Assembly (NCBI GenBank): GCA_029289265.1 | Contig: JARFTX010000005.1 | Location: 34,452-98,451, forward strand | Length of the DNA: 64,000 nucleotides | Direction of reading: 5' to 3' | DNA from: Gammaproteobacteria bacterium | GTDB taxonomy: Bacteria > Pseudomonadota > Gammaproteobacteria > Burkholderiales > Rhodocyclaceae | Shown here: positions 22,677-64,000 of the stretch, one piece after another | Numbering within the stretch: position 1 is the stretch's first letter | How the letters are laid out: every line of letters begins with the position of its first letter | The notes under the pieces: generated by a model | What the model was told of the DNA's origin: nothing | The model's input: the letters and a program-made list of their open reading frames with translations, nothing else | The model's database searches: none | Translations under genes and position numbers: made by a program

Positions 22677-22814
22677 CCCCCCTCCCGACACCGGTGGGCC
22701 AGGGCGGAATTGGGCCCGCCTTGACCCGCTATTCCGCGCAAGCCGCGCTCGAGTCTCCGGTATTCTGGATTTAATCGGCAGCCCCGCTGTCAGACCACAA
22801 CCGGAACGACGACC

Positions 22815-38646: not shown

Positions 38647-38784
38647 CAAGGCTCGCGACGGCCGCAATTGCGACGGCAGGCTGCAGAGCCGCAGGGCAGG
38701 CATGGCGCGCGAAGTCGCGGGACTCGACCCGAGCGCTCCTGCCAGTATCCTCTGCGCAACCGACGAGACCGCAATCGGCGAAAA

Positions 38785-39615
38785 ATGGCAGACACGATCT
38801 CAGCGACCCACCGTTTCCTGATCGAGATCGCGGAAGAACTCTCCGCCCGCGACCTCAGCTTCCCGACCTTTCTCGACGCCACGCTGAAGATCCGCATGGC
38901 GCTCAACAAGGCCGACATCACCGCAGAGGAACTCGCCAAGGTCGTTGCGACCGAGCCGCTGCTCTCGGCGAAGCTGGTGAGGCTCGCCAACTCGGTCGCG
39001 ATGAACCCATCCGGCCAGCAGGTCGTCGATGTGCGCACCGCGGTGATCCGGGTCGGCTTCTCGTCGGTGCGCACGCTCGCCATCGCGCTGGCGATGGAGC
39101 AGCTCATGCAGACCAAGGAGATGGGCGACTACGTCAGGTACGCCCGCCCGCTTTGGGAGCACAGCGTCGACGTCGCCGCCCAGGCCTTTGTCCTCGCCCG
39201 GCGACTCACCCGAATCAACCCGCACGAGGCCTTGTTCGCCGGCATCGTGCATAACATCGGCGCCTTCTACCTGCTCGCCCGCATCGCCAGCCGGCCCGAC
39301 GTCGCACCCGACGGCGAGGAACTCACGCGGCTGATCGACGAATGGCAGTCCAGCATCGGCCATGCGGTGCTGTCCGCGCTGGAGATCCCGGACGAGATCC
39401 TCGCGGCCATCGCCGACCAGGAAACCCCCTTCACCGGCGAGATCCCCGCGACGCTCGCGCAAATCCTGTATGCCGCAAACCGTCTGTCCGAGCGCTCTGG
39501 GCATCTGCACTCCGTCGCCCCGGACCAGCACCCGCCGGCGCTGCAACGCGCTGCTGAAATCATCGCTGGCTCACAGGAAGAACGCACGTCGCTGATCGCG
39601 GCGCTGGGGCGGTGA
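38785..39615 (+). CDS. HDOD-domain signalling protein
   Basis: Stand-alone HDOD: FPTFLDATLKIRMALNKADITAEELAKVVATEPLLSAKLVRLANS...GIVHNIGAFYL. ATG at 38785. Confidence 0.8.
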   Translation: MADTISATHRFLIEIAEELSARDLSFPTFLDATLKIRMALNKADITAEELAKVVATEPLLSAKLVRLANSVAMNPSGQQVVDVRTAVIRVGFSSVRTLAIALAMEQLMQTKEMGDYVRYARPLWEHSVDVAAQAFVLARRLTRINPHEALFAGIVHNIGAFYLLARIASRPDVAPDGEELTRLIDEWQSSIGHAVLSALEIPDEILAAIADQETPFTGEIPATLAQILYAANRLSERSGHLHSVAPDQHPPALQRAAEIIAGSQEERTSLIAALGR

Positions 39616-39711: not shown

Positions 39712-40941
39712 GTGGCGCACGGCATCCAGCGGGTACTGCTGATCGCCGAGGGCGCCACACTCGCCCACGTCGGGCGCCCGCTGGTGATTGCGCGTACGCT
39801 CGAGCAGACCGGCGTGGAGGTCGTGTTCGCGCGGCCGCCGGAATACGCCTGGATGACGCAGCACGGGCGCTTCGAGATCGTCGATTTGCGCAGCCAGCCC
39901 CCGGCGGAATTCGCCCGTCGCCTCGACGCCGGTCGCCCGCTCTACGACCTCGACACCCTGGAAACCTATGTCGCCGACGATATCGCGCTGCTGCGCCGAT
40001 TCCGGCCCGACGCGGTGATCGGCGACTTTCGCCTGTCGTTGTCAGTGAGCGCGCGGCTCGAAGGCATCCCCTACGCGACGCTCTGCGATGCCTACTGGAG
40101 CCCGGAGTGCCCGCTCGACCCGATCGTTCCGGTCCTGCCGTTCACGCGCTTCATGCCGATCGGACTCGCCCAGGCGCTGTTCTCGGCCGTGGCGCCCATC
40201 GCCTTCAGGCTGCACGCCCGCCCGATGGAAGCGCTGCGGCGGCGGCATGGACTGCCCGGCTTCGGGCACGACCTGAGGCGCTGTTACACCGATGCGGACC
40301 TTCGCCTGTTCGCCAACCCGCGTGAGCTCTTCCCTCAGGTGCGCCCCCACTCCGGCGCTGCCTTCATCGGGCCCATCGCCTGGTCGCCCGACACCCCGCT
40401 CCCGGATGATTTTCCGTCGGACCCGGATCTCGTGTATGTCTCGATGGGCAGTTCCGGCAATGTCGGCATTCTTGACACGCTGTTCGCGACGCTTGCCTCG
40501 CTGAACCTGCCGGCCGTGGTCGCGACCGCCGGCCGGCCGGCTCCTCCCCCGCCCGCCCGCAGCTGCATCCGGCTGTACGACTTTCTCCCCGGCCGCGAAG
40601 CGATCGCACGCAGCCGACTGGTCGTCTGCAACGGCGGCAGCCCCACCACCAACCAGGCTCTCGCCGCCGGCGTGCCGGTTCTGGGCATTCCGCAGAACAT
40701 GGACCAGTTTCTCAACATGCGGGCGATCGAGCACTACGGCTGCGGGATCGGGGTACGTACCGACCGCTGCACGGCTGCGGCCCTGCATGCCGCCCTGTCG
40801 TCGCTGCTTGCAGGCACTCCTGCGCATCGGGCAGCGCAGCGCGTCCGGGCGGCGATTGCCGCCGGCGAAGGCCTGAGTCCGATTGCGGATGCGATCGGCG
40901 CCTTGCACCGCACCCGGCCGACCGAGCGCGTCGCGACGTAG
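39712..40941 (+). CDS. GT1-family (MGT/UDP-glycosyltransferase-like) glycosyltransferase
   Basis: C-terminal nucleotide-sugar-binding signature LVVCNGGSPTTNQALAAGVPVLGIPQNMDQFLNMRAIEHYGCGIGV. GTG start. Confidence 0.8.
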   Translation: MAHGIQRVLLIAEGATLAHVGRPLVIARTLEQTGVEVVFARPPEYAWMTQHGRFEIVDLRSQPPAEFARRLDAGRPLYDLDTLETYVADDIALLRRFRPDAVIGDFRLSLSVSARLEGIPYATLCDAYWSPECPLDPIVPVLPFTRFMPIGLAQALFSAVAPIAFRLHARPMEALRRRHGLPGFGHDLRRCYTDADLRLFANPRELFPQVRPHSGAAFIGPIAWSPDTPLPDDFPSDPDLVYVSMGSSGNVGILDTLFATLASLNLPAVVATAGRPAPPPPARSCIRLYDFLPGREAIARSRLVVCNGGSPTTNQALAAGVPVLGIPQNMDQFLNMRAIEHYGCGIGVRTDRCTAAALHAALSSLLAGTPAHRAAQRVRAAIAAGEGLSPIADAIGALHRTRPTERVAT

Positions 40942-41095: not shown

Positions 41096-42121
41096 ATGAA
41101 GAAGAAACTCGCAATCGCCGCCACCGTCGCCGCACTCGGCGCAGCCGGCCAGGCCCAGGCTGCCTTCACCTCGATCTTCGTGAGCCCCGACGGCAGCGGG
41201 TTCGCGAACGCGATCGAGATCACAACCCTCAATTGGCTTGCCGGCAACGCGCTCGCCACAGGTGCGCTGGGGGCCGTCGGCCAGACCCAGGCAGACCTCG
41301 CGGACAATACAATCACCACATTCTATCAAGCGGCCCTGAACACCTTCGTGTTCAACCCTGCAGGCACGTCTACGTCATTTTTGCCTCCAGCCGGATTCGA
41401 GTGGACAGTAACCGCGACGATTGTTGAGCAGGCCGTCGGGGTCGGCGCAGCAACCGCCAGCTTCTTCCCATTCGCGGGTTCGGTGTCGATCTGGTACGGC
41501 CCGCAAAACGCAAACGACATCTCCGGCACTGGCTATGCGGATGGAATCGAAATTCTGCGGGGCACGATCGTGGGCGGTAGTGGCACCTTCACGGATACAA
41601 CCCGCACGGTGTGCAATGCGATCGCCCCGGCACCATGCACCCCGGCTACTGTTCCGACGCTGTTCCCCGATCTTGACCAATTCGGCGCGAACAATGCGCC
41701 CGGAGTGCTCACGCACATCGGCAATGGCCAGTCCGAGATCAAGGTGGATATCGGGGCAAGCGTCGGCGACTTCATCAACCCGAACTTCTTCCTCACGAAC
41801 ATCACCTCCTTCGAGTTCCTGCTCACCGGACTCGAGGACGTGAACGACTCCGGGCAGTTGTTCGCGCCCTTCAACCAGGCCAACCCGTCCGACCTCGTCC
41901 TCGGCGTCGCGCCGTCGTACAGCCTGGTGAACGGGCAGCTGATCAACGGCGGCGACTGCCCGACCGATGCCAACGGCAATTTCACCCAGCGTTGCGACTT
42001 CCACTTCCAGACGCTCAACACGACGTCGTTCCGCGCGGTGCCGGAACCGGGCGCCCTGGCGCTCGCCGGTCTGGGCTTGGGCTTGCTCGGGTTCTTCGCC
42101 CGCCGCCGCACCAGCGTCTGA
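41096..42121 (+). CDS. PEP-CTERM sorting-domain protein (exosortase cargo 1)
   Basis: Sec signal MKKKLAIAATVAALGAAGQAQA. C-terminal VPEPGALALAGLGLGLLGFFARRRTSV (PEP motif, TM helix, Arg cluster). AGGAG ribosome-binding site. The mature part has Cx7C and Cx11C pairs. Confidence 0.88.
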   Translation: MKKKLAIAATVAALGAAGQAQAAFTSIFVSPDGSGFANAIEITTLNWLAGNALATGALGAVGQTQADLADNTITTFYQAALNTFVFNPAGTSTSFLPPAGFEWTVTATIVEQAVGVGAATASFFPFAGSVSIWYGPQNANDISGTGYADGIEILRGTIVGGSGTFTDTTRTVCNAIAPAPCTPATVPTLFPDLDQFGANNAPGVLTHIGNGQSEIKVDIGASVGDFINPNFFLTNITSFEFLLTGLEDVNDSGQLFAPFNQANPSDLVLGVAPSYSLVNGQLINGGDCPTDANGNFTQRCDFHFQTLNTTSFRAVPEPGALALAGLGLGLLGFFARRRTSV

Positions 42122-42147: not shown

Positions 42148-42176
42148 GGCCCGCCAGCGATGGCGGGCCGTTTCAT
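42148..42176. terminator. hairpin terminator between the convergent cargo-1 and nitroreductase genes
   Basis: GGCCCGCC-agcgat-GGCGGGCC followed by GTTTCATT. Lies in the 100-bp convergent gap. Confidence 0.65.
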
Positions 42177-42220: not shown

Positions 42221-43309
42221 TCAGGCTCGGGCGTCGCCCCCTTCCCACATCAGGCTGTCGAGCGGGCGACGCGTAGAGCGCGCCCGAGGCAGGGCGGCGA
42301 CCCCCACCCGCGCGAGGATGACCGGATGCGTCCCCTGTGTGTCGACACAACGCTCGAAGCGATCGGCCAACCGTCCGATGGCGGCGTCGATTTCCGGCAG
42401 CTTCGATGCCTTGGCGCCTGCTCGGGCATACCAGCGGAAGATCACCGGCGTCATCTCCGGCTGCATATGCAGACCCACCGAATGCGCGACAAGCCAGAAG
42501 CGCTGCATGGATCGGCCGGCGGCGACGAAATCCTCGAGCGTCCGCGGCGCCGTCCGGGCCGCGATCAGCACGTGCGCTGCGCAGTAGATCCCTGGCAGGT
42601 AGTCCAGTTGCACTCTGGGCGCAACCGTGCCCATCAAGTAGCGGTTGAAGAAATCGACCCGCTCCCAACTCTGCATCACCCAGCGCATGAGGCGCGCCGT
42701 GAGCGGATCGACGCCAACCGCCTGGTCGGGGATGCGGTCCTCGCTGAAGCGTGCGTTCCATTCGATCACGTCGCGATGCACCGCATAGGCTTCGGGGCAG
42801 GTGAGGCGAATCTTCGCGTTGTCCCACAGCAGCCCGGCCATCTGCCGCCGCTGCGCGAACGATTCGAAGAACACCACTTCGAAACCCGGCCCCGGCGCCT
42901 CGGCGAGCGCGCATCGCTGCTCGGAGGTGAGCGGGGTGGTCTTCATCGGTCTCCGCTGCACCGTCCGGGAACGGATATGCGCGGCGAGCGGGTCGGGACC
43001 GACCGCCGGGTCGTGCGCGAGCCGCACGTCGTAGATCGGCGCCGTGTCGGGTGTGCCCTCGCGCAGCGTCCACTGCGCCGCCAGCCCGAACGTCGTGGCC
43101 GCAAGGCGCAGGGTCTCGAGCAAGGCCCCGTGCGCCATGTGGCTGGCACGACCCTCGAAGTCGTAGAGGACTTCCCTGCGCGTATCGAAACCGTGAATGG
43201 CGATCCAGTCGTCGGCAACGATCTCGAAGCGCCACGGCTGAGTGTTGTCACCGCTGGGCGCCCAGCGGGTGAGATCGAGGATTTTCAGGAGCGTATCGCG
43301 ATCGGTCAT
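42221..43309 (-). CDS. Acg-like double-domain nitroreductase-superfamily (FMN) protein
   Basis: N-terminus LLKILDLTRWAPSGDNTQPWRFEI (nitroreductase signature). 362 aa, with a second half-domain after IRSRTVQRRPM, as in Acg/Rv3131-type proteins. The ATG overlaps the ThiF stop (ATGA, 43306-43309). Confidence 0.8.
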   Translation of the reverse strand: MTDRDTLLKILDLTRWAPSGDNTQPWRFEIVADDWIAIHGFDTRREVLYDFEGRASHMAHGALLETLRLAATTFGLAAQWTLREGTPDTAPIYDVRLAHDPAVGPDPLAAHIRSRTVQRRPMKTTPLTSEQRCALAEAPGPGFEVVFFESFAQRRQMAGLLWDNAKIRLTCPEAYAVHRDVIEWNARFSEDRIPDQAVGVDPLTARLMRWVMQSWERVDFFNRYLMGTVAPRVQLDYLPGIYCAAHVLIAARTAPRTLEDFVAAGRSMQRFWLVAHSVGLHMQPEMTPVIFRWYARAGAKASKLPEIDAAIGRLADRFERCVDTQGTHPVILARVGVAALPRARSTRRPLDSLMWEGGDARA

Positions 43310-44190
43310 GATGTCTGCACGGCGCGCTTCATGCGCGCGAGTTGCCCGCGCGCGAGCCAAAGGGCCAGGCGCTGGAGCGGGTTGCGATTGCCGCCCGGGC
43401 GCCAGGTTTTCACCATGCGCTGCCGGTAGGCGTCGAATTGATAGCCATGCGGAGCAGGACGCAACCCAGGCCGACCGAGGAGGATTCGCACCGCCTCGGC
43501 GCCGGTCACGCCGGCGCACAACTGGCAGGCGACAATGGTCGAGGGGCCGCGCCGTTCGGCCAGATTGACCCGCGAAGCATCGGCCAGGTAGCCACGCTGC
43601 AGCATCCGCGGAGACAGGCCGAGCAGGAAGCGGATCGACATTTCCTCATCGTCGCAGTCGTCGAAGCAGAAATAGTCGTCGAAGGACATGCCTTCCGGCG
43701 CGAACACCAGAACGGCGGCGCCAAAGCCGAGCGGCGCCGCGGTCACCGCGGGGATGCCCAGCTTGCGGCAGGCGGCGAACACCGCCCGGCGAGCCTCGAA
43801 GGCGAAGAAGTCGAGCCCGTCGACATAGAGCGCCGCATCGGCGAGGAACTCCTCGACGTTCGAGAGGCCGACGCCTCCGGGAAAGCGACGCAGATCGAGT
43901 TCGGGATTGATGTCCGCGGCCATGGCCGCGAGTGTGTCGAGTTTCGGCCGTCCGAGCGAGGAAACCACGGCGCCGGCCTGGCGGTTGAAATTGACGAGAT
44001 CGAAGGTATCGAAATCGGCAATGCTGAATGCGCCGATTCCGAGCCGCGCGAGCGTGAGCAGATGCACGCCGCCGACCCCGCCCATCCCGGCGATTGCCAC
44101 GCGCGAAGCGCGCAGCGTCCGCTGCTCGGCCTCGGTCACCCAACCAATGTTGCGCGAGAAGGCCGCTTCGTAGCCGAATTCGGCGTGCAT
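43306..44190 (-). CDS. ThiF/MoeB/HesA-family E1-like adenylyltransferase
   Basis: Intact nucleotide-binding loop VAIAGMGGVGGVHLLTLARLGIGAFSIADFDTFDLVNFNRQ. 294 aa; no rhodanese domain. Confidence 0.85.
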   Translation of the reverse strand: MHAEFGYEAAFSRNIGWVTEAEQRTLRASRVAIAGMGGVGGVHLLTLARLGIGAFSIADFDTFDLVNFNRQAGAVVSSLGRPKLDTLAAMAADINPELDLRRFPGGVGLSNVEEFLADAALYVDGLDFFAFEARRAVFAACRKLGIPAVTAAPLGFGAAVLVFAPEGMSFDDYFCFDDCDDEEMSIRFLLGLSPRMLQRGYLADASRVNLAERRGPSTIVACQLCAGVTGAEAVRILLGRPGLRPAPHGYQFDAYRQRMVKTWRPGGNRNPLQRLALWLARGQLARMKRAVQTS

Positions 44191-44259
44191 GAGGCCTATC
44201 CTTCGTTCGTAGACCTTTGACGGTTATCATACATCCATGACGACCCGATCGGCTTTCGC

Positions 44260-45501
44260 ATGTTGACGGCATTCGTGGACGGCATCACGAAACAAACGCG
44301 GCTCGCCGGCCGGAATCTCGTTCGCCAGCGCCGCCGCGCCGCGCTCGCGATGCTGACCATCTGCGGAGGCGTCGTCACCTTTCTGCTCGCCGGGGGATTC
44401 ATCAACTGGATCCTCGACAGCATGCGGGAATCCACCATCCACTCGCAGTTGGGCCACGTCCAGATCGTCCGGCCCGGCTACCTGCGCGACGGGTTGGGCG
44501 ATCCTTACAGCTACCTGCTGCCCGCCGACACCGATGCCGTCACAGCCGAGCGCGTGCCGGCGTTGCGCACCGTGGCGCCACGCCTGGCGTTCAGCGGACT
44601 CGTCAGCAAGGGCGAGGAAACCATCTCGTTCGTCGGCGAAGGCATCGACCCCATTGGCGAAGCGGATATCGGCCAGTCGGTGATGATCGTCCAGGGGCAG
44701 GACCTGACCGCGGCCTCCCCCGACAGCGCCCTGCTCGGCGTCGGCCTCGCGGCGAACCTCGGTGCCGCCCCGGGCGACCAGATCGTCCTGCTTGCGACCA
44801 CCGCGAGCGGCGGCATCAATGCGATCGAGCTCACGATCGCCGGCCTGTTCGCCACGCCTGCCAAGGCCTATGACGACTCCGTGCTGCGGATTCCGATCGA
44901 TAGCGCGCGCACCCTGATGCGTGTCGAGGGCGCGACGAGCTGGGTCGTCCTGCTCGAGCGCACCCGCGCGACCGAGGCCGCCCTCGCCCACCTGCGCACG
45001 CACCTGTCGGCGGAAGAGTTCGAGATCGTTCCGTGGTACGACCTCGCCGACTTCTACAACAAGACCGTGGAGCTCTTCACCCGTCAGGTCGATGTCGTGC
45101 GGCTGCTGATCGCCCTCATCGTCATCCTGAGCATCGGCAACACCTTGTCGATGGCCGTGGTCGAGCGCACCAGCGAGATCGGCACCTCGATGGCGCTGGG
45201 GGTGCGGCGCCGCGGCATCATGACCATGTTCCTCGCCGAAGGCGCACTGCTCGGGATGGTCGGAGGCGTGGTCGGCGTCACGGCCGGAATCTTGCTGGCG
45301 GCGGTGATCTCGTTCGTCGGCATCCCGATGCCCCCTCCGCCCGGCATGGACATGGGTTTCATCGGCGAGATCTCGATATCGCCCGGCCTCGCGCTCGACG
45401 CCTTCTTGCTGGCATTCGTGACAACTTTGCTTGCGAGCCTCTTCCCGGCGTGGAAGGCTTCCCGGATGAACATCGTGGACGCGCTGCGCCAGCAACGATG
45501 A
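44260..45501 (+). CDS. FtsX/MacB/LolCE-type ABC transporter permease 1
   Basis: N-terminal LAGRNLVRQRRRAALAML TM1, a large periplasmic domain, and a C-terminal FtsX module (MALGVRRRGIMTMFLAEGALLGMVGGVVG...ASRMNIVDALRQ). Confidence 0.85.
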   Translation: MLTAFVDGITKQTRLAGRNLVRQRRRAALAMLTICGGVVTFLLAGGFINWILDSMRESTIHSQLGHVQIVRPGYLRDGLGDPYSYLLPADTDAVTAERVPALRTVAPRLAFSGLVSKGEETISFVGEGIDPIGEADIGQSVMIVQGQDLTAASPDSALLGVGLAANLGAAPGDQIVLLATTASGGINAIELTIAGLFATPAKAYDDSVLRIPIDSARTLMRVEGATSWVVLLERTRATEAALAHLRTHLSAEEFEIVPWYDLADFYNKTVELFTRQVDVVRLLIALIVILSIGNTLSMAVVERTSEIGTSMALGVRRRGIMTMFLAEGALLGMVGGVVGVTAGILLAAVISFVGIPMPPPPGMDMGFIGEISISPGLALDAFLLAFVTTLLASLFPAWKASRMNIVDALRQQR

Positions 45502-46721
45502 TCGGAATGATCCTCCGCCTCGCGCTGCGCAATCTCCTGCGCCAACGGATCCGCACGGCGATGACACTCGCCGCGATCGTGTTCGGAGTATCGGGCCTGG
45601 TCGTCTCGGGCGGCTTCGTCCAGGACATCTTCGTCCAACTGGGCGAAGCGATCATCCACTCGCAGACTGGTCATGTACAGGTCGTGCGCAAGGATTTCAT
45701 CGAGCGCGGAACGCGCCGTCCCGAACGCTACCTGATCGACGGACCGGAACAGGTCGCCGCCCAAATCGAGTCCCTGCCCGAGGTCAAGGAGGTCGCGAGC
45801 CGGCTGAGCTTTACTGGCGCGCTCAACAACGGCCGGCGCGATCTGGGCATCATAGGCGAGGGCATCGAACCGGACAAGGAGGCGCGACTGGGAACCTTCC
45901 TGACGATCACGGCGGGACGGCACCTGACCGATTCGGACCTGTTCGGCATGGTCGTCGGACAAGGGGTCGCCCACGCGTTGAGCCTCACACCGGGCGACGT
46001 GGTGACGTTGGTCATGAGTACAGCCGATGGCGCCCTCAACACGCTGGATTTCGAGCTGATCGGAGTATTCCAGAGCTTTTCGCGCGACTTCGATGCGCGC
46101 GCCGTGCGCATCCCCCTCTCGGCCGCCCAGGAGCTGATGCTGACCCCGGGCGTGAACGTTCTGGTCGCCACCCTGCATCGCACCGAGGACACCGACGGCG
46201 CCTACGCGCAGATCGTCGCCGGGCTGGACCCGGAGTCGCTCGAGGCCCATCACTGGCGGATGCTGTCGGATTTCTACGAGAAGACGCTCGACCTCTACGA
46301 CCGGCAGTTCGGCGTGCTACAGCTCATCATCCTCGCCATGGTGCTGCTGTCCGTCGCCAACAGCGTGAATATGGCGACTTTCGAGCGCATGAGCGAGTTC
46401 GGCACCATGCAGGCCCTGGGCAACCGTCGGCGGCACGTCTTCGGCCTCATCGTTGCCGAGAACGTGCTGCTGGGCGCGATCGGCGCAGTGCTGGGGGCGC
46501 TGGTCGGAGTCGCGCTGGCATTGGTGATCTCGGCGGTGGGCATCGCGATGCCGCCGCCGCCCAATGCCAACGTCGGTTACACCGCCGCGATCCGGCTCGT
46601 GCCGGAGACCATCGCCGCCGCCATGCTGATCGGCTTTCTGGCCACTTCGCTGGCGGCGATTCTTCCGGCTCGCCGTGTCTCTTCGGCGGCGGTCGTCGAT
46701 GCGCTCAGACAAGGGGCCTAG
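45498..46721 (+). CDS. FtsX/MacB/LolCE-type ABC transporter permease 2
   Basis: Paralogous architecture (LALRNLLRQRIRTAMTL...QALGNRRRHVFGLIVAENVLLGAIGAVLG...ARRVSSAAVVDALRQ). ATGA overlap with permease 1. Confidence 0.85.
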   Translation: MIGMILRLALRNLLRQRIRTAMTLAAIVFGVSGLVVSGGFVQDIFVQLGEAIIHSQTGHVQVVRKDFIERGTRRPERYLIDGPEQVAAQIESLPEVKEVASRLSFTGALNNGRRDLGIIGEGIEPDKEARLGTFLTITAGRHLTDSDLFGMVVGQGVAHALSLTPGDVVTLVMSTADGALNTLDFELIGVFQSFSRDFDARAVRIPLSAAQELMLTPGVNVLVATLHRTEDTDGAYAQIVAGLDPESLEAHHWRMLSDFYEKTLDLYDRQFGVLQLIILAMVLLSVANSVNMATFERMSEFGTMQALGNRRRHVFGLIVAENVLLGAIGAVLGALVGVALALVISAVGIAMPPPPNANVGYTAAIRLVPETIAAAMLIGFLATSLAAILPARRVSSAAVVDALRQGA

Positions 46722-46722
46722 C

Positions 46723-47496
46723 ATGTCGCTGTTCGACCGTTTCAACCTTGGACATGGCTTCAGCAAGTATTTCCGTGTCGACCCGGCAACCGACGACGCG
46801 ATGCGCGACGAGGTCTTCCGCATTCGCCACGAGGTCTATTGCCAGGAATTGCGCTTCGAGCCCGAACGGGCCGATCGGCGGGAGTGGGACGAGTACGACG
46901 CCCATAGCCTGCACTGCCTGCTGCGCACCAGCCAGTCGCCCCATCAGCCGGTTGGCTGCACTCGACTGGTCCTGACCAACCCGGACGACCGCGGCCAGCC
47001 GCTGCCTTTCGAGCGCACTTGCGCCGCCACGCTGGACCGCTCCATCATCGACCCGGCGCGGCTGCCGCGCGAGCGCATCGCCGAGGTGTCGCGCCTGGCC
47101 GTTCGCGCGAGCTACCGGCGGCGGCGCAACGAAAACGCCTCGCCCATGGCCCTGAGCGAAGAGGATTTCGGCTCGGTGACCCGGCCGCGCTTCCCCTACG
47201 TCCCGATCGGACTCTACCTGGGCGCAATCGCGCTGGCTGCCCGCAATGGCATCGACACGATCTTCGTCCTGACGGAGCCCCGCCTGGCCAGCCATTTCGC
47301 CAAGCTCGGGGTCGATGTCCGGCGCATCGGCGGGCCGGTCGAGCATCGTGGCACCCGCGTGCCGTCGATGATGGACGTCCAGTCCATCATCGCCAACATG
47401 CGCTTCCTGGTGCGGCCGATGTGGCGCGTGGTGCGAGACGAAATCGAACGGGGGTTTTCCGAGGCCCCGCACGCGGCGGCCGACATCGAGCCGTGA
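46723..47496 (+). CDS. N-acyl amino acid synthase, PEP-CTERM/exosortase-system-associated type (GNAT/LuxI-like)
   Basis: MSLFDRFNLGHGFSKYFRVDPATDDAMRDEVFRIRHEVYCQELRFE...RIAEVSRLAV...FVLTEPRLASHFAKLGV matches my recollection of the TIGR03694 family. The ATG lies 1 nt after the permease-2 stop. Confidence 0.82.
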   Translation: MSLFDRFNLGHGFSKYFRVDPATDDAMRDEVFRIRHEVYCQELRFEPERADRREWDEYDAHSLHCLLRTSQSPHQPVGCTRLVLTNPDDRGQPLPFERTCAATLDRSIIDPARLPRERIAEVSRLAVRASYRRRRNENASPMALSEEDFGSVTRPRFPYVPIGLYLGAIALAARNGIDTIFVLTEPRLASHFAKLGVDVRRIGGPVEHRGTRVPSMMDVQSIIANMRFLVRPMWRVVRDEIERGFSEAPHAAADIEP

Positions 47497-47615: not shown

Positions 47616-48755
47616 TCAGCTCATGCTGCGCATCCGGCGGCGCAGGCTGGCCCCGATGCCGAACAGCCCGAGGCCGACCAGCGCAAGACTCGCAGGCTCC
47701 GGCACCTCGATGAAGGTGGTATTGCTCGACGCAAGGAAGAGCTGCTCGAAGCCGTTGTCGATGCGCAGATTGTCGCAACTCGGGGCAATGCGCGGGTCGC
47801 AACCCAGCCACAGCTCGAGGTGCATCGAGTACTCGCTCAGGACCGCGTCGCTGAGCGGGAAGAGCTGGCTCAGGTACTGGTTGAGGAGCGGCACGTCGGC
47901 GGCATAGGCGGCCTGGTTGGCGCCCAGATTGTGGTTGAAGCGGACGATGCCGGCAGCGTTCGAGCACGGCACGATGGGGTTGCCAGCTTGCGTCGAATCA
48001 AGGCAGACCTCGCCGCCGGAGAGCACGTAGTCGGTGATGAAGTTGCCTTGCGCATCGACGCCGATTCCCGGCAGCATCACGTTGCCAGGGTTGTACGTCG
48101 TCGCATCGCCGAGCGGGATGCCGCCGAACCCATACGCGCTCATGTTGTTGCTCAGGTAGAGATGGCGGCCGAACAGGTCGCCGTTCGGGTCGGTGAGCCA
48201 GAGCTTCGCCCAGATCGCGAGGTTCTGATCCCGGTTGGTCTCGTTGTTGTTGAACAGGAACAACGGATTGCCGCCGTCGAGGAAGCTCTTGAGCGCGAAC
48301 AGGCTCGCATCCCAGGTGGTGGCGAGTTGGGTGTGAACGCCTGCCCCACCGCCGGCGTTGGTGGGCTCGATCAGGTTGATCGCCCCTGTGCCGGCGTTCG
48401 GCGCGGTCGCGATGAAATTGGTCGTCGACGCGAAGTCGCCCTGTTGGCCCGACGGGGTCTGGTAGGCGTGTTCGAAGCCGCTGACGTTGGTCGTGACGTC
48501 CTGCCCTCCAGCCCCGGTGTAGATCACCACCAGATCCTTGATCGCTCCCGGTGTCGAGGCAATGTAGTAGGGGTTCCCCGGCCCGGTCTGCTGAGGATTG
48601 AACTCCCAGGCCGCGATCGGCAGCGAATAGACGTTGACGTTGCCGAAGGTCAGGAAGCCGACGCCGTTCAGGTCGAGCAACGCGGCGTTGGCACTGCCGA
48701 CACAGAGCGCACTGGTAAGACCCACGCATCCCAAAAGCATCTTGCTCGATTTCAT
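47616..48755 (-). CDS. PEP-CTERM sorting-domain protein (exosortase cargo 2)
   Basis: Sec signal MKSSKMLLGCVGLTSALCVGSANA. C-terminal VPEPASLALVGLGLFGIGASLRRRMRSMS. GGAG ribosome-binding site. The mature part has Cx12C and Cx7C pairs. Confidence 0.88.
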   Translation of the reverse strand: MKSSKMLLGCVGLTSALCVGSANAALLDLNGVGFLTFGNVNVYSLPIAAWEFNPQQTGPGNPYYIASTPGAIKDLVVIYTGAGGQDVTTNVSGFEHAYQTPSGQQGDFASTTNFIATAPNAGTGAINLIEPTNAGGGAGVHTQLATTWDASLFALKSFLDGGNPLFLFNNNETNRDQNLAIWAKLWLTDPNGDLFGRHLYLSNNMSAYGFGGIPLGDATTYNPGNVMLPGIGVDAQGNFITDYVLSGGEVCLDSTQAGNPIVPCSNAAGIVRFNHNLGANQAAYAADVPLLNQYLSQLFPLSDAVLSEYSMHLELWLGCDPRIAPSCDNLRIDNGFEQLFLASSNTTFIEVPEPASLALVGLGLFGIGASLRRRMRSMS

Positions 48756-48809
48756 GGCGAATTCTCCACATCTGCGGCATGAACCCCATGCCTCTTTGCC
48801 ATGAACAAA

Positions 48810-48824
48810 GCAATTGACGCGCCA
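48810..48824 (-). promoter_or_regulatory. sigma-54 (-24/-12) promoter upstream of PEP-CTERM gene 2
   Basis: The minus strand reads TGGCGCgtcaaTTGCT, one mismatch to TGGCAC-N5-TTGC with exact spacing, 55 nt upstream of the ATG at 48755. An A/T tract lies at 48842-48858, just upstream. Confidence 0.7.
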
Positions 48825-48955
48825 CTTCATGCACAAGGCTGTTTTTTATTTATTTTTTGCATTCAGCAGCCCCGACCGACCGTCCCATTGTAAAAAAAAC
48901 CGACACACCACGCCCGGCGCGTCGTTGTTCCCTTTTGGCACGATTGAAATCAAGA

Positions 48956-52266: not shown

Positions 52267-53265
52267 CTATGCGCCGATCCGCACCACCGTCCGGCCCTTG
52301 ACCTCGCCCCGGATGTAGGCGTCGAAGGCCCCGGGCAATTCGTCGAAACCGATCGTGCGCGTCACCTCGGCAAGATGGCGCGGCTTGAGATCGCCGGCGA
52401 GCCGATCCCAAACGCGCTGGCGCATCGGGAAGCCCATGTAGCCGGAATCGATGCCGAGCAGGCTCACGCCGCGCAGGATGAAGGGGAATACCGTGGTGTT
52501 GATCTTGAAATCGGCCGCGTTGCCGATGCTTGCCACGGTGCCTGCCTGCTTCATCGTCGCCAGCACCCAGTGCAGGATCTGGCCGCCCACGTTGTCGACG
52601 GCACCGGCCCACTGCGAGGCCTCGAGCGGGCGCACCTTGTCGAAGTCGATCTCGCTGCGCAGCTTGATCTCGGCCGCACCGAGCCCCTTCAGATAGTCCG
52701 CCTCCGCTGCCTTGCCGGTCAGCGCGACGACGTGGTAGCCGAGCCGCGCCAGCATGTCGATGGCGAGGCCGCCGACGCCGCCGGTCGCCCCGGTGACAAT
52801 GACCGGGCCGTTGTCCGGTGCGAGGCCGTTGTCTTCCATGCGCACGACACCGAGCGCCGCTGTGAAGCCGGCGGTGCCGAGCGCCATCGCTTCGAAGAGA
52901 TCGAGACCGGCTGGCAGCGGCACGACCCAGCCGGCCGGCACGCGCGCGTATTCGGCATAGCCGCCGTGGTGCGCGACGCCGATGTCGAAGCTGGTGGCGA
53001 TGACCTTGTCGCCGGGCGCGAAACGCGCGTCGGCACTTTCGACCACCTCGCCCGACAGGTCGATGCCGCCCACGCATGGAAAGCGGCGGATGATCTTGCC
53101 CGCGCCGGTCGCCGCAAGCGCGTCCTTGTAGTTGATGCTCGAGTAATGGACGCGGATCAGCACTTCTCCGGCATCGAGCCGGTCGCGGTCGAGCGTCGTC
53201 AACCGCCCGCCGACCTTCTTGTCGGCGTCCTGATCGATGAGATAGGCCTTGAAGGGTGAATTCAT
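52267..53265 (-). CDS. acuI: acrylyl-CoA reductase (NADPH), YhdH/AcuI family
   Basis: Colinear with E. coli YhdH: SSINYKDALA, GIDLSGEV, TGATGGVGG, VFPFILRGVSLLGIDS, GRTVV. Its stop lies 2 nt before the response-regulator ATG. Confidence 0.85.
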   Translation of the reverse strand: MNSPFKAYLIDQDADKKVGGRLTTLDRDRLDAGEVLIRVHYSSINYKDALAATGAGKIIRRFPCVGGIDLSGEVVESADARFAPGDKVIATSFDIGVAHHGGYAEYARVPAGWVVPLPAGLDLFEAMALGTAGFTAALGVVRMEDNGLAPDNGPVIVTGATGGVGGLAIDMLARLGYHVVALTGKAAEADYLKGLGAAEIKLRSEIDFDKVRPLEASQWAGAVDNVGGQILHWVLATMKQAGTVASIGNAADFKINTTVFPFILRGVSLLGIDSGYMGFPMRQRVWDRLAGDLKPRHLAEVTRTIGFDELPGAFDAYIRGEVKGRTVVRIGA

Positions 53266-53407
53266 CGGTGTCTCCTCTGCGATGGGGCGGCGGAAGGGCC
53301 GTGCGCCGCGTTTTGCGCCGATTATATCTCGACTGCCGGCACAGCCAGACTTCAGTTCCGGCCCGCGGAGGCCGATAATCCCGGGGTGCGATGACAAACT
53401 GTTGCGG

Positions 53408-54313
53408 ATGAGCCCCCTCGACGCCCCCCTTGATTCGGTCGATGCCTACGTGGCGCTGTTCACGCGGCAGGAGATCCCCGTACTGCGGCACACCGTGCGG
53501 ACACTGGAAGCCCTGCGCGACCGCGAGGAAAGCGTCAATGGCCGGCACATCGCCGCCATCGTCCAGGGCGACCCGCTGATGACGATGCGGCTGCTCGTGC
53601 ATCTGCAGGCGCACCGCCCGGCGGCCCAGAACCATGACATCACGACCATCGATCGGGCCGTGATGATGATGGGCGTGCCCCCGTTTCTCGCGACCTTCTC
53701 CAACCTGCCGACCCTCGAGGACCAGCTCGCCGGCAATCCGCGTGCGCTGCTGGGTGCGCTGCAGGTGATCGGCCGGGCGCGCAAGGCGGCGCACTTCGCG
53801 CGCGACTGGGCGATCGTGCGCCACGATCTCGACGTCGACGAGATCACGGTCGCCGCGCTGTTGCGCGAAGCGACCGAGATCATGATGTGGATCTTCGCGC
53901 CCGCCCTGAGCCTGAAGGTGCAGGCAATGCAGAAGGCCGACCCGAACTTGCGCGCGGTGGCGGCCCAGCGCGCCGTCTTCGGCGTGGCCGAGAGCGAAGT
54001 GCAGCTTGCCCTGGTAAGGGCCTGGAACATGCCCGAGCTGCTGGTGACGCTGCTCGACGAAGCGCACTGGGAGAATCCGCGCGTGCGCAACGTGCGCCTC
54101 GCCAGCGATCTCGCCCGGCACGTCGCGCACGGCTGGGACAACCCGGCCGTGCCGGACGATCTTGCCGAGATCGAACGCCTGCTGCATGTCGGGCGCGAGC
54201 CCCTGCTGCGGCGCCTCGGCGTGCCCTTCGAGCTGACGAATCGATTCCTCGGCGACCCCGCCGCGCCGGAGCCGGCTTCGACCGGTCCAGCGCCCGGCGA
54301 CAACCCGCGCTAG
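53408..54313 (+). CDS. HDOD-domain protein
   Basis: QEIPVLRHTVRTLEALRDRE...GDPLMTMRLLVHLQ...TTIDRAVMMMG is HDOD-like. ATG at 53408. Confidence 0.75.
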   Translation: MSPLDAPLDSVDAYVALFTRQEIPVLRHTVRTLEALRDREESVNGRHIAAIVQGDPLMTMRLLVHLQAHRPAAQNHDITTIDRAVMMMGVPPFLATFSNLPTLEDQLAGNPRALLGALQVIGRARKAAHFARDWAIVRHDLDVDEITVAALLREATEIMMWIFAPALSLKVQAMQKADPNLRAVAAQRAVFGVAESEVQLALVRAWNMPELLVTLLDEAHWENPRVRNVRLASDLARHVAHGWDNPAVPDDLAEIERLLHVGREPLLRRLGVPFELTNRFLGDPAAPEPASTGPAPGDNPR

Positions 54314-55906: not shown

Positions 55907-57820
55907 TCAACCGCCCGAGGCTCGCGTCTCGAGCGCCTCCCAACGCAGCATCGCCGCCTCGATCTCCTGATCGAGCGCGGCAAGGCGCGCATTGACGCGC
56001 ACGATCTCGGCCGCATCCTGCTGGTAGAGCGCCGGATCGGCGAGCCGCTGCTGCAGCGCGGCCTGTTCGGCTTCCAGCGCAGCGATGCGATCGGGCAACG
56101 CTTCCAGCTCGCGCTTCTCGGCGTAGCCGAGCCTGGTCGGGCGCGCAGACGCGGGCTTTGCCGGCTCGGCCGGGCGTGTGGCCGGCTGCGCCGGCGCCGC
56201 CGATTGCACGCGCGGTTCAGCTTCCGCAAGACGCGCGCGTTGCCATTCCGCATACCCCCCGGCGTACTCGCGCCAGTGGCCGTCGCCCTCCGAGGCGATC
56301 ACCTGCGTCACGACGTTGTCGAGAAAGGCGCGGTCGTGACTCACCAGGAAAAGCGTGCCCTGGTAGCCGTCAAGCAATTCCTCGAGCAGGTCCAGCGTCT
56401 CGATGTCGAGATCGTTGGTCGGCTCGTCGAGCACCATGACGTTGGCCGGCCGCGCGAAAAGCCGCGCGAGCAGCAGCCGGTTGCGCTCCCCGCCCGAGAG
56501 CGACTTCACTGGCGAGCGTGCACGCTGCGGCGCGAAGAGAAACTCGCCGAGGTAGCCGATGACATGCTTGCGCTCGCCGCCGATTTCGACGAAGTCGGAA
56601 CCCGGACTGATGACCTCGGTGAGCGGCAGCTCCGGGTCGAGCTGGGCCCGCAGCTGGTCGAAGTAGGCCACCGCCTGGCGGGTACCTCGCCGTACCGTGC
56701 CCTCGTCCGGAGCGAGTTCGCCGAGGATCAACTTGAGCAACGTGGTCTTGCCCGAACCGTTCGGTCCGATCAGGCCGACCCGGTCGCCACGCAGGATGCG
56801 CGTGGAGAAGTCCTGCACCACCACGCGGTCGCCGAAGCGCTTGCCGACGTGGATCAGCTCGGCCACCATCTGGCCGCTCTGCTCGCCGCGGTCGACGGCG
56901 AACTTGACCGTGCCGAGCCGCTCGCGCCGCGCCGCGCGCGCGAGCCGCAGCGCCTCGAGCCGGCGCACCCGGCCCTCGTTGCGGGTGCGGCGGGCCTCGA
57001 CGCCCTTGCGAATCCACACCTCCTCCTGCGCGAGCACCTTGTCGAAGTTCGCTGCGGCGCGGCTCTCCGCCTCCAGTTCGTCGGCCTTGCGCCGCTGGTA
57101 GTCGGCGAAGCGGCCGGGGTAGCTCGCGAGGCGGCCGCGATCGAGCTCGGCAATGCGGGTGGCGACGTTGTCGAGGAACACCCGGTCATGGGTGATGACC
57201 ACAACCGCGCCGGGGAACTCGCGGATCAAGCCCTCGAGCCAGACAATGCCGTCGAGGTCGAGATGGTTGGTCGGCTCGTCGAGCAGCAGCAGATCGGGTT
57301 CGGCGACCAGCGCACGCGCGATCGCGACCCGCTTCAGCCCGCCACCGGAGAGGTCGGCCACCCGCGCACCGCCGTCGAGCCGCAGTCGCAGCAGCACCGC
57401 CTCGACACGCTGGTTGAGGCGCCAGGCATCGGCCGCCTCCACCTCGTGCTGCAGCGCAGACAGCCGCTCCAACCGCTCCGGGGTGGCCGATTCCGCGACC
57501 TCGTGCATGGCCGCGTGGTAGTCCACCAGCAGTCGCGCCGCATCGCCCAATCCTTCCGCCACGGCGGCGAAGACATCGCACTCGGCGGCGAAATCCGCCT
57601 CCTGGGCCACGTAGGCGACCCGCAGTCCGGGCGAACGCCACACCGTGCCGTCGTCGAGCGCGGCCTGGCCTGCCAGGACCTTGAGCAGGCTCGACTTGCC
57701 GGAGCCGTTGCGGCCGATCAGGGCGACGCGTTCTCCCGCGTCGAGCTGGAAGTCGGCACGGTCGAGCAGATCGACGTGCCCGAAGGCGAGACAGGCGCCG
57801 GAGACGGACAATAAGGGCAT
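55907..57820 (-). CDS. uup: ABC-F family ATPase (Uup-like)
   Basis: Two ABC cassettes (GRNGSGKSS and GPNGSGKTT; LSGGGLKRV and LSGGERNRL) and a C-terminal coiled-coil tail. ATG at 57820. Confidence 0.9.
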   Translation of the reverse strand: MPLLSVSGACLAFGHVDLLDRADFQLDAGERVALIGRNGSGKSSLLKVLAGQAALDDGTVWRSPGLRVAYVAQEADFAAECDVFAAVAEGLGDAARLLVDYHAAMHEVAESATPERLERLSALQHEVEAADAWRLNQRVEAVLLRLRLDGGARVADLSGGGLKRVAIARALVAEPDLLLLDEPTNHLDLDGIVWLEGLIREFPGAVVVITHDRVFLDNVATRIAELDRGRLASYPGRFADYQRRKADELEAESRAAANFDKVLAQEEVWIRKGVEARRTRNEGRVRRLEALRLARAARRERLGTVKFAVDRGEQSGQMVAELIHVGKRFGDRVVVQDFSTRILRGDRVGLIGPNGSGKTTLLKLILGELAPDEGTVRRGTRQAVAYFDQLRAQLDPELPLTEVISPGSDFVEIGGERKHVIGYLGEFLFAPQRARSPVKSLSGGERNRLLLARLFARPANVMVLDEPTNDLDIETLDLLEELLDGYQGTLFLVSHDRAFLDNVVTQVIASEGDGHWREYAGGYAEWQRARLAEAEPRVQSAAPAQPATRPAEPAKPASARPTRLGYAEKRELEALPDRIAALEAEQAALQQRLADPALYQQDAAEIVRVNARLAALDQEIEAAMLRWEALETRASGG

Positions 57821-57967
57821 GGGATTCCGGACCTCAAAGGCCGGTCGAGACGGGTTCGGCGGGATAGGGTGCGATTCTACCGGTCTGTTACCATGCGGGG
57901 CGACTTCGCGGATAATGCACTGCAACAAAATCGTGGCGGCGACTGCGCCCGACAAGAACGAGACCGA

Positions 57968-62129: not shown

Positions 62130-63410
<1,281 letters not shown>

Positions 63411-63517
63411 GAAAGCTTCCCTTCCAGTTATTCGATTCACGGCACCCAAGCGCCGTTATGGATGACATGGTTCATAGCGTTGCGGAGCTTGCAGGCGAAT
63501 GCCCGAGCGATCCGCGC

Positions 63518-64000
63518 CTAGAGCTGCTCCTTCAACCGCCGCGCCTCGGCATGCACGGGTGAGTTCTCGGGCGATTGGCCGAGCAATTCGTCCAATACGC
63601 CACGAGCTTCCGCCTTGCGGTTCGCAGCCAGGTAAGCCTTGGCCAGATTGATCCGCAGTGCTCCGGTCGAGGGCGAAAGCGCGACGGCGCGATGAAGGTT
63701 TGCAAGGCCGGTTTCGATTTCACCGCTCTCGACCTGCAGCATCCCGAGCGTGTCGAGAATCGCAGCGTTGTTCGGAGCGAGCTCGTCTGCCCGCTGCGCG
63801 AGCGAGATCGCATCGGGCCGCTTCAGGCGACCGGCGACCCATGCGAGATTGTTCAGCACCAGGGCATTGTCGGCGCGGATCTCGAGCATCCGGCGGTACA
63901 AGATCTCGGCATCGGCAAGCCGGTTCTCCCCGATTGCCCGCTCGGCCAGGTAGGTGCGCACGGCAAGATCGTCGGGATTTGCCTTGAGCCAGCTCGCGGC
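63518..64000 (-). CDS. prsT: TPR-repeat protein, C-terminal part; probable PEP-CTERM system TPR lipoprotein PrsT (5' end outside window)
   Basis: The frame is open to position 64000 (AASWLKANPDDLAVRTYLAERAIG...). TPR repeats end in AEARRLKEQL. The PrsT call rests on context and C-terminal similarity only. Confidence 0.6.
   Translation of the reverse strand, partial: AASWLKANPDDLAVRTYLAERAIGENRLADAEILYRRMLEIRADNALVLNNLAWVAGRLKRPDAISLAQRADELAPNNAAILDTLGMLQVESGEIETGLANLHRAVALSPSTGALRINLAKAYLAANRKAEARGVLDELLGQSPENSPVHAEARRLKEQL

Follow-up and report, generated by a model that had tools for sequence, protein, structure and literature searches.

Introduction

OxzB of Pseudoalteromonas rubra is an oxazolone synthetase that carries a ThiF and a nitroreductase domain in one chain, and its substrates are N-acyl tyrosine and N-acyl phenylalanine made by the adjacent N-acyltransferase OxzA (bioRxiv 10.1101/2020.06.11.147165). 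Mycobacterium tuberculosis makes C12:0-tyrazolone with three separate proteins: the NAS (N-acyl amino acid synthase) TyzA (Rv2336), the stand-alone ThiF protein TyzB (Rv2338c, formerly "MoeW"), which carries out ATP-dependent cyclization, and the flavin-dependent oxidase (FDO) TyzC (Rv2337c), which carries out O2-dependent desaturation; tyzBC is divergent from tyzA (PMC10404671). Here, we describe a ThiF gene and an FDO gene that overlap in a 64,000-nucleotide stretch of DNA, called the window below, from a bacterium assigned to the Rhodocyclaceae (GenBank assembly GCA_029289265.1, contig JARFTX010000005.1, positions 34,452 to 98,451 of the forward strand). We propose, with a probability of about 0.8, that the pair is a split acyl-oxazolone synthetase, in which the product of a NAS would be adenylated and cyclized by the ThiF protein and desaturated by the FDO.

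Further described systems bear on this proposal. TrzA and TrzS (Rv1356c and Rv1355c, "MoeY") make N-acyl tryptazolones, and the TrzS substitutions D217A in the ThiF domain and R540A and Q651A in the FDO domain impair the cyclase and desaturase activities, respectively; the closest solved structure to the TrzS FDO domain is 2YMV (PMC12856293). Both the MoeW and the MoeY names are misannotations (PMC10404671, PMC12856293). TyzC falls into a subcluster, FDO-A23, that includes sequences from Betaproteobacteria and Hydrogenophilalia and in which over half of the genes with known context adjoin a ThiF gene, whereas FDO-B genes have no ThiF or NAS association (PMC10404671). Clusters of NAS, ThiF and nitroreductase genes with overlapping open reading frames (ORFs) are also present in the N-acyl-dehydrotyrosine producers M. 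kyonggiensis, Thalassotalea and Stieleria, and the ThiF and nitroreductase family proteins of M. kyonggiensis resemble TyzB and TyzC (PMC12479983). The Stieleria (stieleriacine) cluster contains a PEP-CTERM protein gene (PMC7293339).

An overlapping ThiF and FDO gene pair

The pair and the NAS gene nearest to it occupy the following positions of the window:

43306..44190, minus strand: predicted ThiF-family ATP-dependent cyclase of the TyzB or OxzB-N-domain type, 294 aa (Pfam and NCBIfam matches)
42221..43309, minus strand: predicted flavin-dependent oxidase (FDO) with a single-chain double nitroreductase fold, of the TyzC or OxzB-C-domain type, 362 aa (Pfam and NCBIfam matches, AlphaFold2 model)
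43306..43309, minus strand: ATGA stop/start overlap of the ThiF and FDO genes (read directly from the sequence)
[quoted passage not shown]

The G+C content of the window is about 64-70% in 2-kb steps, and long spurious ORFs are abundant because of it. Both ORFs of the pair are real. The 294-aa protein contains the loop IAGMGGVGGVHLL and the Pfam ThiF domain, as the first-pass annotation of this DNA had described when it reported an intact nucleotide loop. The ATGA overlap with a 362-aa ORF, also reported there, is confirmed: the TGA stop of the ThiF gene overlaps the ATG of the FDO gene in acatcATGAccgat, and the FDO begins with MTDRDTLLKILDLTRWAPSGDNTQPWRF. We read this overlap as indicating translational coupling of the cyclase and oxidase genes. 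Their adjacency is no chance juxtaposition, because the gene order recurs in about 66 of 80 loci from other species, with a stop/start spacing that is mostly -8, -4 or 0 nt. We found neither a signal peptide nor a membrane segment in the ThiF protein or the FDO, and both look soluble and cytoplasmic from their sequences. The NAS, in addition to TIGR03694, matches Pfam Acetyltransf_5 and FeeM.

Family and conserved residues of the ThiF protein

Pfam ThiF (PF00899) matches residues 12-270 of the 294-aa protein (E = 1.4e-40). The protein passes the cut-off of the NCBIfam equivalog model NF006077 (PRK08223, named "hypothetical protein") with 461.6 bits against 266, and residues 2-292 align with model positions 2-293 of 296. 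Both proteins of the pair have many close homologues (60-79% identity) in Zoogloeaceae and other Betaproteobacteria, whose source names are "ThiF family adenylyltransferase", "nitroreductase family protein", "MoeY" and "molybdopterin/thiamine biosynthesis adenylyltransferase".

We aligned 21 diverse stand-alone ThiF homologues and found that R13, G35, G37, G40, D61, N67, R70, Q71, K83 and D124 are invariant. Of the 21, 20 also have D127, which HMMER aligns with D127 of E. coli ThiF. The ATP-binding site, judged by these residues, is intact. D127 also has a counterpart among the residues mutated in TrzS. The TrzS contexts, 8-12 residues long, were translated from the mutagenesis primers in the supplement of PMC12856293, and they give a short local match between the D217 context DVVVEEC-D-SLDA and the window sequence AALYVDGL-D-FFA around D127.

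Family and fold of the flavoprotein

On the FDO, Pfam recognizes the N-terminal nitroreductase motif alone. The Acg-family model NF047509 aligns end to end, with FDO residues 12-353 on positions 4-318 of 319, at 122.2 bits against a cut-off of 199. We modelled the FDO with AlphaFold2 using 42 homologues (predicted local distance difference test score, pLDDT, 87.5; predicted template modelling score, pTM, 0.89). The best Protein Data Bank (PDB) match of the model is 2YMV, the M. smegmatis Acg homologue (E = 1.2e-12, template modelling scores 0.64/0.70), which is its sole full-length structural match there; the others are ordinary nitroreductases about half as long. A sequence search of the PDB with the FDO gave a 28-residue motif match only and no close relative.

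The first-pass annotation had called this protein an Acg/Rv3131-like double nitroreductase. The architecture stands, through the end-to-end alignment and the 2YMV fold, but family membership does not, with a score below the NCBIfam Acg cut-off. By its sequence the FDO would instead belong to a related, oxazolone-type branch, the FDO-A of PMC10404671, as a relative of Acg with the same fold and not as a member.

R168 and Q283 of the FDO are invariant in the 42 homologues. The primer-derived TrzS contexts match locally at both, without a full alignment: R540 in RRTDRI-R-YLTP with R168 in WDNAKI-R-LTCP, and Q651 in GVSV-Q-PVSP with Q283 in GLHM-Q-PEMTP.

Relation to fused proteins

Together, the ThiF protein and the FDO match both halves of the fused models PRK14851, PRK14852 and Rv1355c. 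The ThiF protein scores 56.2 bits on the Rv1355c-family model NF005901, whose cut-off is 476, and is not a member; the FDO covers positions 373-716 of its 722, the C-terminal half, at 114 bits against the same cut-off. The earlier description of the pair as a split MoeY-like module is thus accurate, since the two proteins align to the matching halves of this model. Its statement that Rv1355c fuses these two domain types is borne out by the Rv1355c-family model and by PMC10404671 and PMC12856293.

We then searched 1.84 billion cluster representatives exhaustively with HMMER and ran Pfam scans on selected matches. Outside the protein's own cluster, most of the best ThiF matches are proteins of 650-690 aa with the ThiF domain at the N-terminus, and the nearest non-orthologous fused relatives are 50-60% identical to the window ThiF domain. 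The fusions take several forms: ThiF + nitroreductase (P0124, P0253), nitroreductase + ThiF (P0163, P0215), NAS + ThiF (P0126), FeeM-type NAS + ThiF + nitroreductase (P0212), methyltransferase + ThiF + FeeM-type NAS (P0262) and methyltransferase + ThiF + nitroreductase (P0243). The NAS-ThiF and NAS-ThiF-FDO fusions are found among relatives that are 48-57% identical in the ThiF domain. These domain fusions join the three activities, NAS, ThiF and FDO, and thereby tie them into one pathway. Aligned over its whole length, the FDO shares 37% identity with the C-terminal domain of P0124, a ThiF-FDO fusion (E = 6e-61). The window NAS shares 30% identity with the NAS domain of P0126 (E = 3e-20), a protein that the Joint Genome Institute (JGI) record names "N-acyl amino acid synthase of PEP-CTERM/exosortase system".

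Methyltransferase + ThiF is also among the architectures, and in P0142, P0243 and P0262 a methyltransferase dependent on S-adenosylmethionine (SAM) lies N-terminal to ThiF. By analogy, these fusions recall the methylated stieleriacines, which suggests families of tailored products.

Gene neighbourhoods across species

We scanned one genome per species and obtained 80 loci with 59-79% ThiF identity; 563 candidate stretches were confirmed as relatives, and neighbours were counted by tblastn, phmmer and ORF clustering. The orthologue group spans Beta- and Gammaproteobacteria, with members in the genomes of at least 80 species. The loci come from Thauera, Aromatoleum, Azoarcus, Zoogloea, Nitrosospira, Nitrosomonas, Janthinobacterium, Duganella, Thiobacillus and others, including Sulfuricella, Ferrovum, Methylophilaceae, Gallionellaceae, Rubrivivax and Ectothiorhodospira. 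Among the 80 loci, the neighbours are as follows:

66-68 loci: oxidase directly downstream of ThiF
49 loci: NAS of either type within about 8 kb of ThiF
30 loci: TIGR03694-type NAS near ThiF
22 loci: FeeM-type NAS (PF21926, 193 bits), as a rule on the same strand and directly upstream
38 loci: MacB-type permease pair near ThiF
24-28 loci: GT1 glycosyltransferase within 8 kb of ThiF
63 loci: any PEP-CTERM/XrtA marker near ThiF

The spacing between the ThiF stop and the FDO start is -8 nt in 14 loci, -4 nt in 13 and 0 nt in nine. In another seven loci the ORF that matches ThiF extends about 2 kb through the oxidase position, and the two genes appear fused there, judging from the reading frames. 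Orthologous ThiF genes of 61-72% identity for which no FDO was detected in the flank downstream were seen in L003, L016, L023, L043, L048, L057, L072, L076 and L079.

Approached from the NAS side, a ThiF gene is present on 37 of 80 metagenome contigs, many of which are short. Where the NAS has 4.5 kb or more of flanking sequence on each side (18 loci), the ThiF gene is found in 13. The association of NAS with the ThiF-FDO pair is strong but not universal. In a NAS subclade on metagenome contigs (L139-L156), ThiF and FDO are absent from the contig even with a flank of up to 10 kb.

As PEP-CTERM/XrtA markers we counted PrsT, the chain-length determinant of the XrtA system, its associated tyrosine kinase, PEP-CTERM proteins of the EDSAP-1 or PepA type, and any ORF with a PEP-CTERM motif at its end. 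This motif was detected in 67 ORFs from 57 of the 80 loci, against 2 in reversed and 2 in shuffled controls. The GT1 gene is often separated from the ThiF-FDO genes by a PEP-CTERM protein gene (L004, L007, L010, L014, L015, L027, L040 and others), and its product might glycosylate the lipid product or the PEP-CTERM protein.

In many genomes, genes for a LolD-like ABC ATPase, a LolA-like protein and an outer-membrane DUF1302 protein join those of the permease pair; such sets were seen in L016, L017, L028, L031, L035, L050, L055, L068, L069, L077, L079, L155 and L160. From the gene content, the permeases with these partners look like a dedicated Lol-like lipid export route beside NAS, ThiF and FDO.

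The neighbourhood in the window

The genes and elements around the pair are, from left to right:

39712..40941, plus strand: GT1 glycosyltransferase (MGT/EryCIII-like, macrolide type; domain matches)
41096..42121, plus strand: PepA-like PEP-CTERM protein, convergent with the oxidase gene (PEP-CTERM domain, E = 2.3e-6)
42148..42169, both strands: GC-rich hairpin, possible bidirectional terminator (9-bp stem, 8 G-C pairs; consensus match only)
44191..44259, no strand: 69-bp gap from which the ThiF-FDO and permease-NAS operons diverge, presumably a control region for both (from coordinates)
44260..45501, plus strand: MacB/LolCE-type ABC permease 1 (MacB_PCD + FtsX), 413 aa (domain matches; many hydrophobic windows)
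45498..46721, plus strand: MacB/LolCE-type ABC permease 2, 407 aa (start overlaps the permease 1 stop by ATGA)
47616..48836, minus strand: second PEP-CTERM protein, convergent with the NAS gene (domain matches)
62130..63455, minus strand: TviB-like UDP-sugar dehydrogenase at the right edge of the window (annotation)
63521..63991, minus strand: C-terminal end of PrsT, an XrtA/PEP-CTERM marker, whose gene runs off the window (TIGR02917 positions 762-898 of 899, 154 bits)

The NAS ATG follows the permease 2 stop by 1 nt, as read from the sequence. In the 69-bp divergent gap, a promoter scan detected no sigma-70-like promoter. The hairpin sits in the 99 bp that separate the converging oxidase and PEP-CTERM protein genes. 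For the PepA-like protein, the start was taken at MKKKLAIAATVAALGAAGQAQA and the C-terminus reads VPEPGALALAGLGLGLLGFFARRRTSV; the floc_PepA model gives it 64 bits, under the cut-off of 80. The true start of the second PEP-CTERM gene is probably about 80 nt inside its ORF.

The PrsT fragment comprises the C-terminal 137 residues. The UDP-sugar dehydrogenase gene, followed by the end of PrsT, marks the start of an XrtA/PEP-CTERM exopolysaccharide locus at the window's right edge, some 16 kb away from the NAS gene. No exosortase gene is present inside the window, and beside its permease pair we found no ABC ATPase, LolA-like or DUF1302 gene.

Apart from the right edge, the remaining annotated window is housekeeping. 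To the left of the module lie L27, obg and proB and then an HDOD protein, and to the right prpE and other unrelated genes. HDOD-domain proteins (putative signalling) are encoded on both sides of the module (38668-39615 and 53246-54313, both on the plus strand), and an EAL-domain cyclic di-GMP (c-di-GMP) phosphodiesterase is encoded at 22725-24410; these proteins might provide a regulatory connection with the formation of biofilm or flocs. A large protein at 57815-60166 (plus strand) is a full-length match to Pfam PF10136 (site-specific recombinase, 798.6 bits); its gene lies between those of a Uup-like ABC-F ATPase and a serine protease and is unrelated to ThiF and FDO.

A proposed route to an unsaturated oxazolone

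From the gene structure, family membership, fold, conserved residues, fusions and synteny described above, we infer the chemical steps, the substrate, the export and the physiological role of the product. The TIGR03694 NAS (46723-47496) would transfer a fatty acyl group from acyl-coenzyme A (acyl-CoA) or acyl-acyl carrier protein (acyl-ACP) to the alpha-amino group of an amino acid, which by analogy may be aromatic. The ThiF-like enzyme (43306-44190) would then adenylate the free alpha-carboxylate at the expense of ATP, and attack of the amide oxygen on the acyl-adenylate would release AMP and close a 5(4H)-oxazolone ring. The oxidase (42221-43309), predicted to depend on flavin mononucleotide (FMN), would use O2 to desaturate the C-alpha/C-beta bond, yielding an unsaturated oxazolone that could readily hydrolyse to an N-acyl-dehydro-amino acid. 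Cyclization and desaturation may follow a fixed or a free order, as in the characterized systems. The MacB/LolCE-type permeases co-transcribed with NAS would probably carry the lipid product into the envelope or through it, where it could serve as a signal or an envelope lipid in PEP-CTERM/XrtA exopolysaccharide and floc biology.

That the ThiF protein might adenylate the carboxylate of an N-acyl amino acid, with the flavoprotein performing an oxidation, had been put forward in the first-pass annotation, and this suggestion gains support by analogy with the published OxzAB, TyzABC and TrzAS chemistry and from the fusions, the synteny and the conserved residues. It needs one correction: by the same analogy, the adenylate would be no end point but would be resolved by intramolecular cyclization to the oxazolone.

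Several observations weigh against the proposal. No NAS lies within 8 kb in about 30 of the 80 loci, for example in Janthinobacterium and Duganella, and in about 10 loci ThiF has no adjoining FDO. A TIGR03694-type NAS subclade, about 60% identical to the window NAS, has no ThiF nearby, so that by gene content some exosortase-associated NAS genes would not feed a ThiF/FDO pathway. The mapping of TrzS residues comes from primer-derived contexts of 8-12 residues. The export step is weak, because no ABC ATPase lies beside the permease pair in the window. Finally, an oxazolone was never observed in the stieleriacine, kyonggic-acid and thalassotalic-acid producers (PMC12479983).

Alternative end products and substrates

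The last point leads to a variant of the same pathway, in which the same enzymes make an N-acyl-2,3-dehydro-amino acid of the kyonggic or thalassotalic kind as the end product, and the oxazolone is a transient intermediate or a device for epimerization or activation. The N-acyl-dehydrotyrosine producers carry NAS + ThiF + nitroreductase clusters, and because these related producers show no oxazolone, the dehydro-amino acid may be the stable product here as well (PMC12479983). Oxazolones hydrolyse readily in acid or water and undergo alcoholysis (PMC12856293, bioRxiv 10.1101/2020.06.11.147165), and the associations with GT1 and methyltransferases suggest tailoring of a stable scaffold. However, a ring without a role would hardly account for an ATP-consuming cyclase that at least 80 proteobacterial species have kept, and an oxazolone is the detected product in three characterized systems. 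We therefore treat this end product as a tentative possibility, with the odds somewhat against it.

The remaining explanations assign the ThiF protein another substrate. It is quite unlikely that the pair activates some other small-molecule carboxylate and that its link to NAS reflects mere neighbourhood within PEP-CTERM loci. The roughly 30 loci without a detected NAS would fit this, as would Janthinobacterium and Duganella, where the constant neighbours are GT1 and PEP-CTERM protein genes (the NAS-less locus viewed in detail from these genera has a methyl-accepting chemotaxis protein (MCP) and an M16 peptidase upstream). Yet relatives with 48-57% ThiF identity fuse the domain to NAS or to NAS and FDO, a FeeM-type NAS lies directly upstream on the same strand in 22 loci, N-acyl amino acids are the substrate of all characterized homologues, and genomes without a NAS nearby may encode it elsewhere. 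It is very improbable that the ThiF protein acts as in the MccB, PaaA or thiazole/oxazole-modified microcin (TOMM) systems and modifies the C-terminus of a peptide or protein, be it a hidden precursor or a PEP-CTERM protein cleaved by exosortase. E1-like adenylation of peptide C-termini is established (PMC12596934), and PEP-CTERM genes are found on both sides of the pair here and in its vicinity in 57 of 80 loci. But PaaA matches the ThiF protein weakly (E = 2.3e-6), and fusion partners are NAS and methyltransferase, not peptide-binding domains or recognition domains of ribosomally synthesized and post-translationally modified peptides (RiPPs). Exosortase acts at the membrane, whereas the pair has no signal peptides or membrane segments; the earlier suggestion that the pair acts on a C-terminus released by exosortase thus fails, since the enzymes look soluble and cytoplasmic and their relatives are fused to NAS and to no peptide-handling domain. 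No YcaO is present among the annotated ORFs across the window and no credible short precursor-like ORF in either intergenic gap flanking the pair, both in keeping with the initial reading that the pair lacks a YcaO and an obvious peptide substrate, and we rejected TOMM machinery on these two grounds. There is next to no chance that the ThiF protein is a conventional MoeB/ThiF/MoeZ-type E1 that activates a sulfur carrier, despite its Pfam ThiF membership and homologue records named "MoeY" or "molybdopterin/thiamine biosynthesis adenylyltransferase"; such MoeW and MoeY names have been shown to be misannotations (PMC10404671, PMC12856293). The protein reaches 53-82 bits on the MoeB, ThiF and MoeZ models, whose cut-offs are 159-647 (the best are MoeB, 82 against 449, and ThiF, 81 against 275). 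C175, C179, C222 and C225, at the positions of the zinc-binding site of MoeB/ThiF, vary across the homologues, and no MoaD/ThiS-like small ubiquitin-like ORF adjoins the pair; a sulfur-carrier E1 was rejected on these scores, the cysteines and the lack of such a partner beside the pair. The actual partner is a flavoprotein, which is fused to ThiF in most relatives.

The link to PEP-CTERM and exosortase genes

A 2011 study reportedly linked NAS to the PEP-CTERM/exosortase system, without a mechanism. That link and the PEP-CTERM gene in the stieleriacine cluster (PMC7293339) are partial precedents for the arrangement described here. The chemistry itself was published for other bacteria in 2021-2025, and the published similarity networks include betaproteobacterial members. 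The less documented point is the regular placement of the pair among PEP-CTERM/exosortase genes, at which the literature only hints: in the searchable literature, we found no explicit statement that the pair is a regular component of XrtA/PEP-CTERM neighbourhoods, nor that it partners the TIGR03694 "exosortase-associated" NAS.

If these NAS usually feed an oxazolone-forming pair, a reactive azlactone or a lipid of the dehydro-amino-acid type may be the molecule that matters in floc and exopolysaccharide biology. The orthologue group includes activated-sludge floc formers (Zoogloea, Thauera) and nitrifiers (Nitrosospira, Nitrosomonas). A specific and testable annotation also becomes possible for the cyclase group, in which NF006077 is still a "hypothetical protein" and homologue records bear the misleading name "MoeY".

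A bolder idea, which we hold to be a long shot, is that betaproteobacterial "exosortase-associated" NAS feed a pair that makes an electrophilic unsaturated oxazolone (azlactone), and that this product is passed to the Lol-like route of MacB-type permeases, LolA-like protein and DUF1302 protein, where it would either lipidate a PEP-CTERM/XrtA component or signal floc formation. Candidate targets of such lipidation would be an unknown exosortase acceptor, the exopolysaccharide or sorted proteins. If true, this would give a chemical function to the unexplained linkage of NAS and exosortase.

Comparison with known systems

Among the described systems, TyzABC shares with the window its division into separate proteins, namely a NAS, a ThiF protein (about 300 aa) and a single-chain FDO (about 370 aa), the last two each standing alone, and in both, the cyclase and oxidase genes form one operon with NAS divergent on the opposite strand. 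The window differs in the order within this operon, which is ThiF and then FDO, in its exosortase-associated NAS (TIGR03694), whose gene is co-transcribed with those of two MacB-type permeases, and in its PEP-CTERM/XrtA context, whereas TyzABC has a cysK/cysE/mmpL9 context.

OxzAB has the same ThiF and nitroreductase domain types together with an N-acyltransferase gene, and fused relatives of the window ThiF share its architecture. However, OxzB is one di-domain protein, whereas the window has separate genes that appear translationally coupled, and oxzA lies directly upstream on the same strand, an arrangement that is seen in the FeeM-type loci only and not in the window. TrzS is likewise fused. 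The window proteins align to the matching halves of the Rv1355c-family model and share 2YMV as closest structure with TrzS, but they score 56 and 114 bits against 476, and TrzS belongs to a separate ThiF subcluster rich in mycolic-acid bacteria.

Acg, Rv3131 and Rv3127, which are FDO-B flavoproteins of the DosR regulon, resemble the window FDO in their single-chain fold mimicking a nitroreductase dimer; the window FDO reaches 122 bits against 199, and FDO-B proteins have no ThiF or NAS partners (PMC10404671). The stieleriacine, kyonggic and thalassotalic clusters (NasY + ThiF + nitroreductase) share split genes and overlapping ORFs with the window and, in Stieleria, a PEP-CTERM gene, and their methyltransferase partners compare with the methyltransferase-ThiF fusions among relatives of the window ThiF. 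In contrast to the oxazolone systems, their reported products are N-acyl-dehydrotyrosines, and their enzymology has not been reconstituted.

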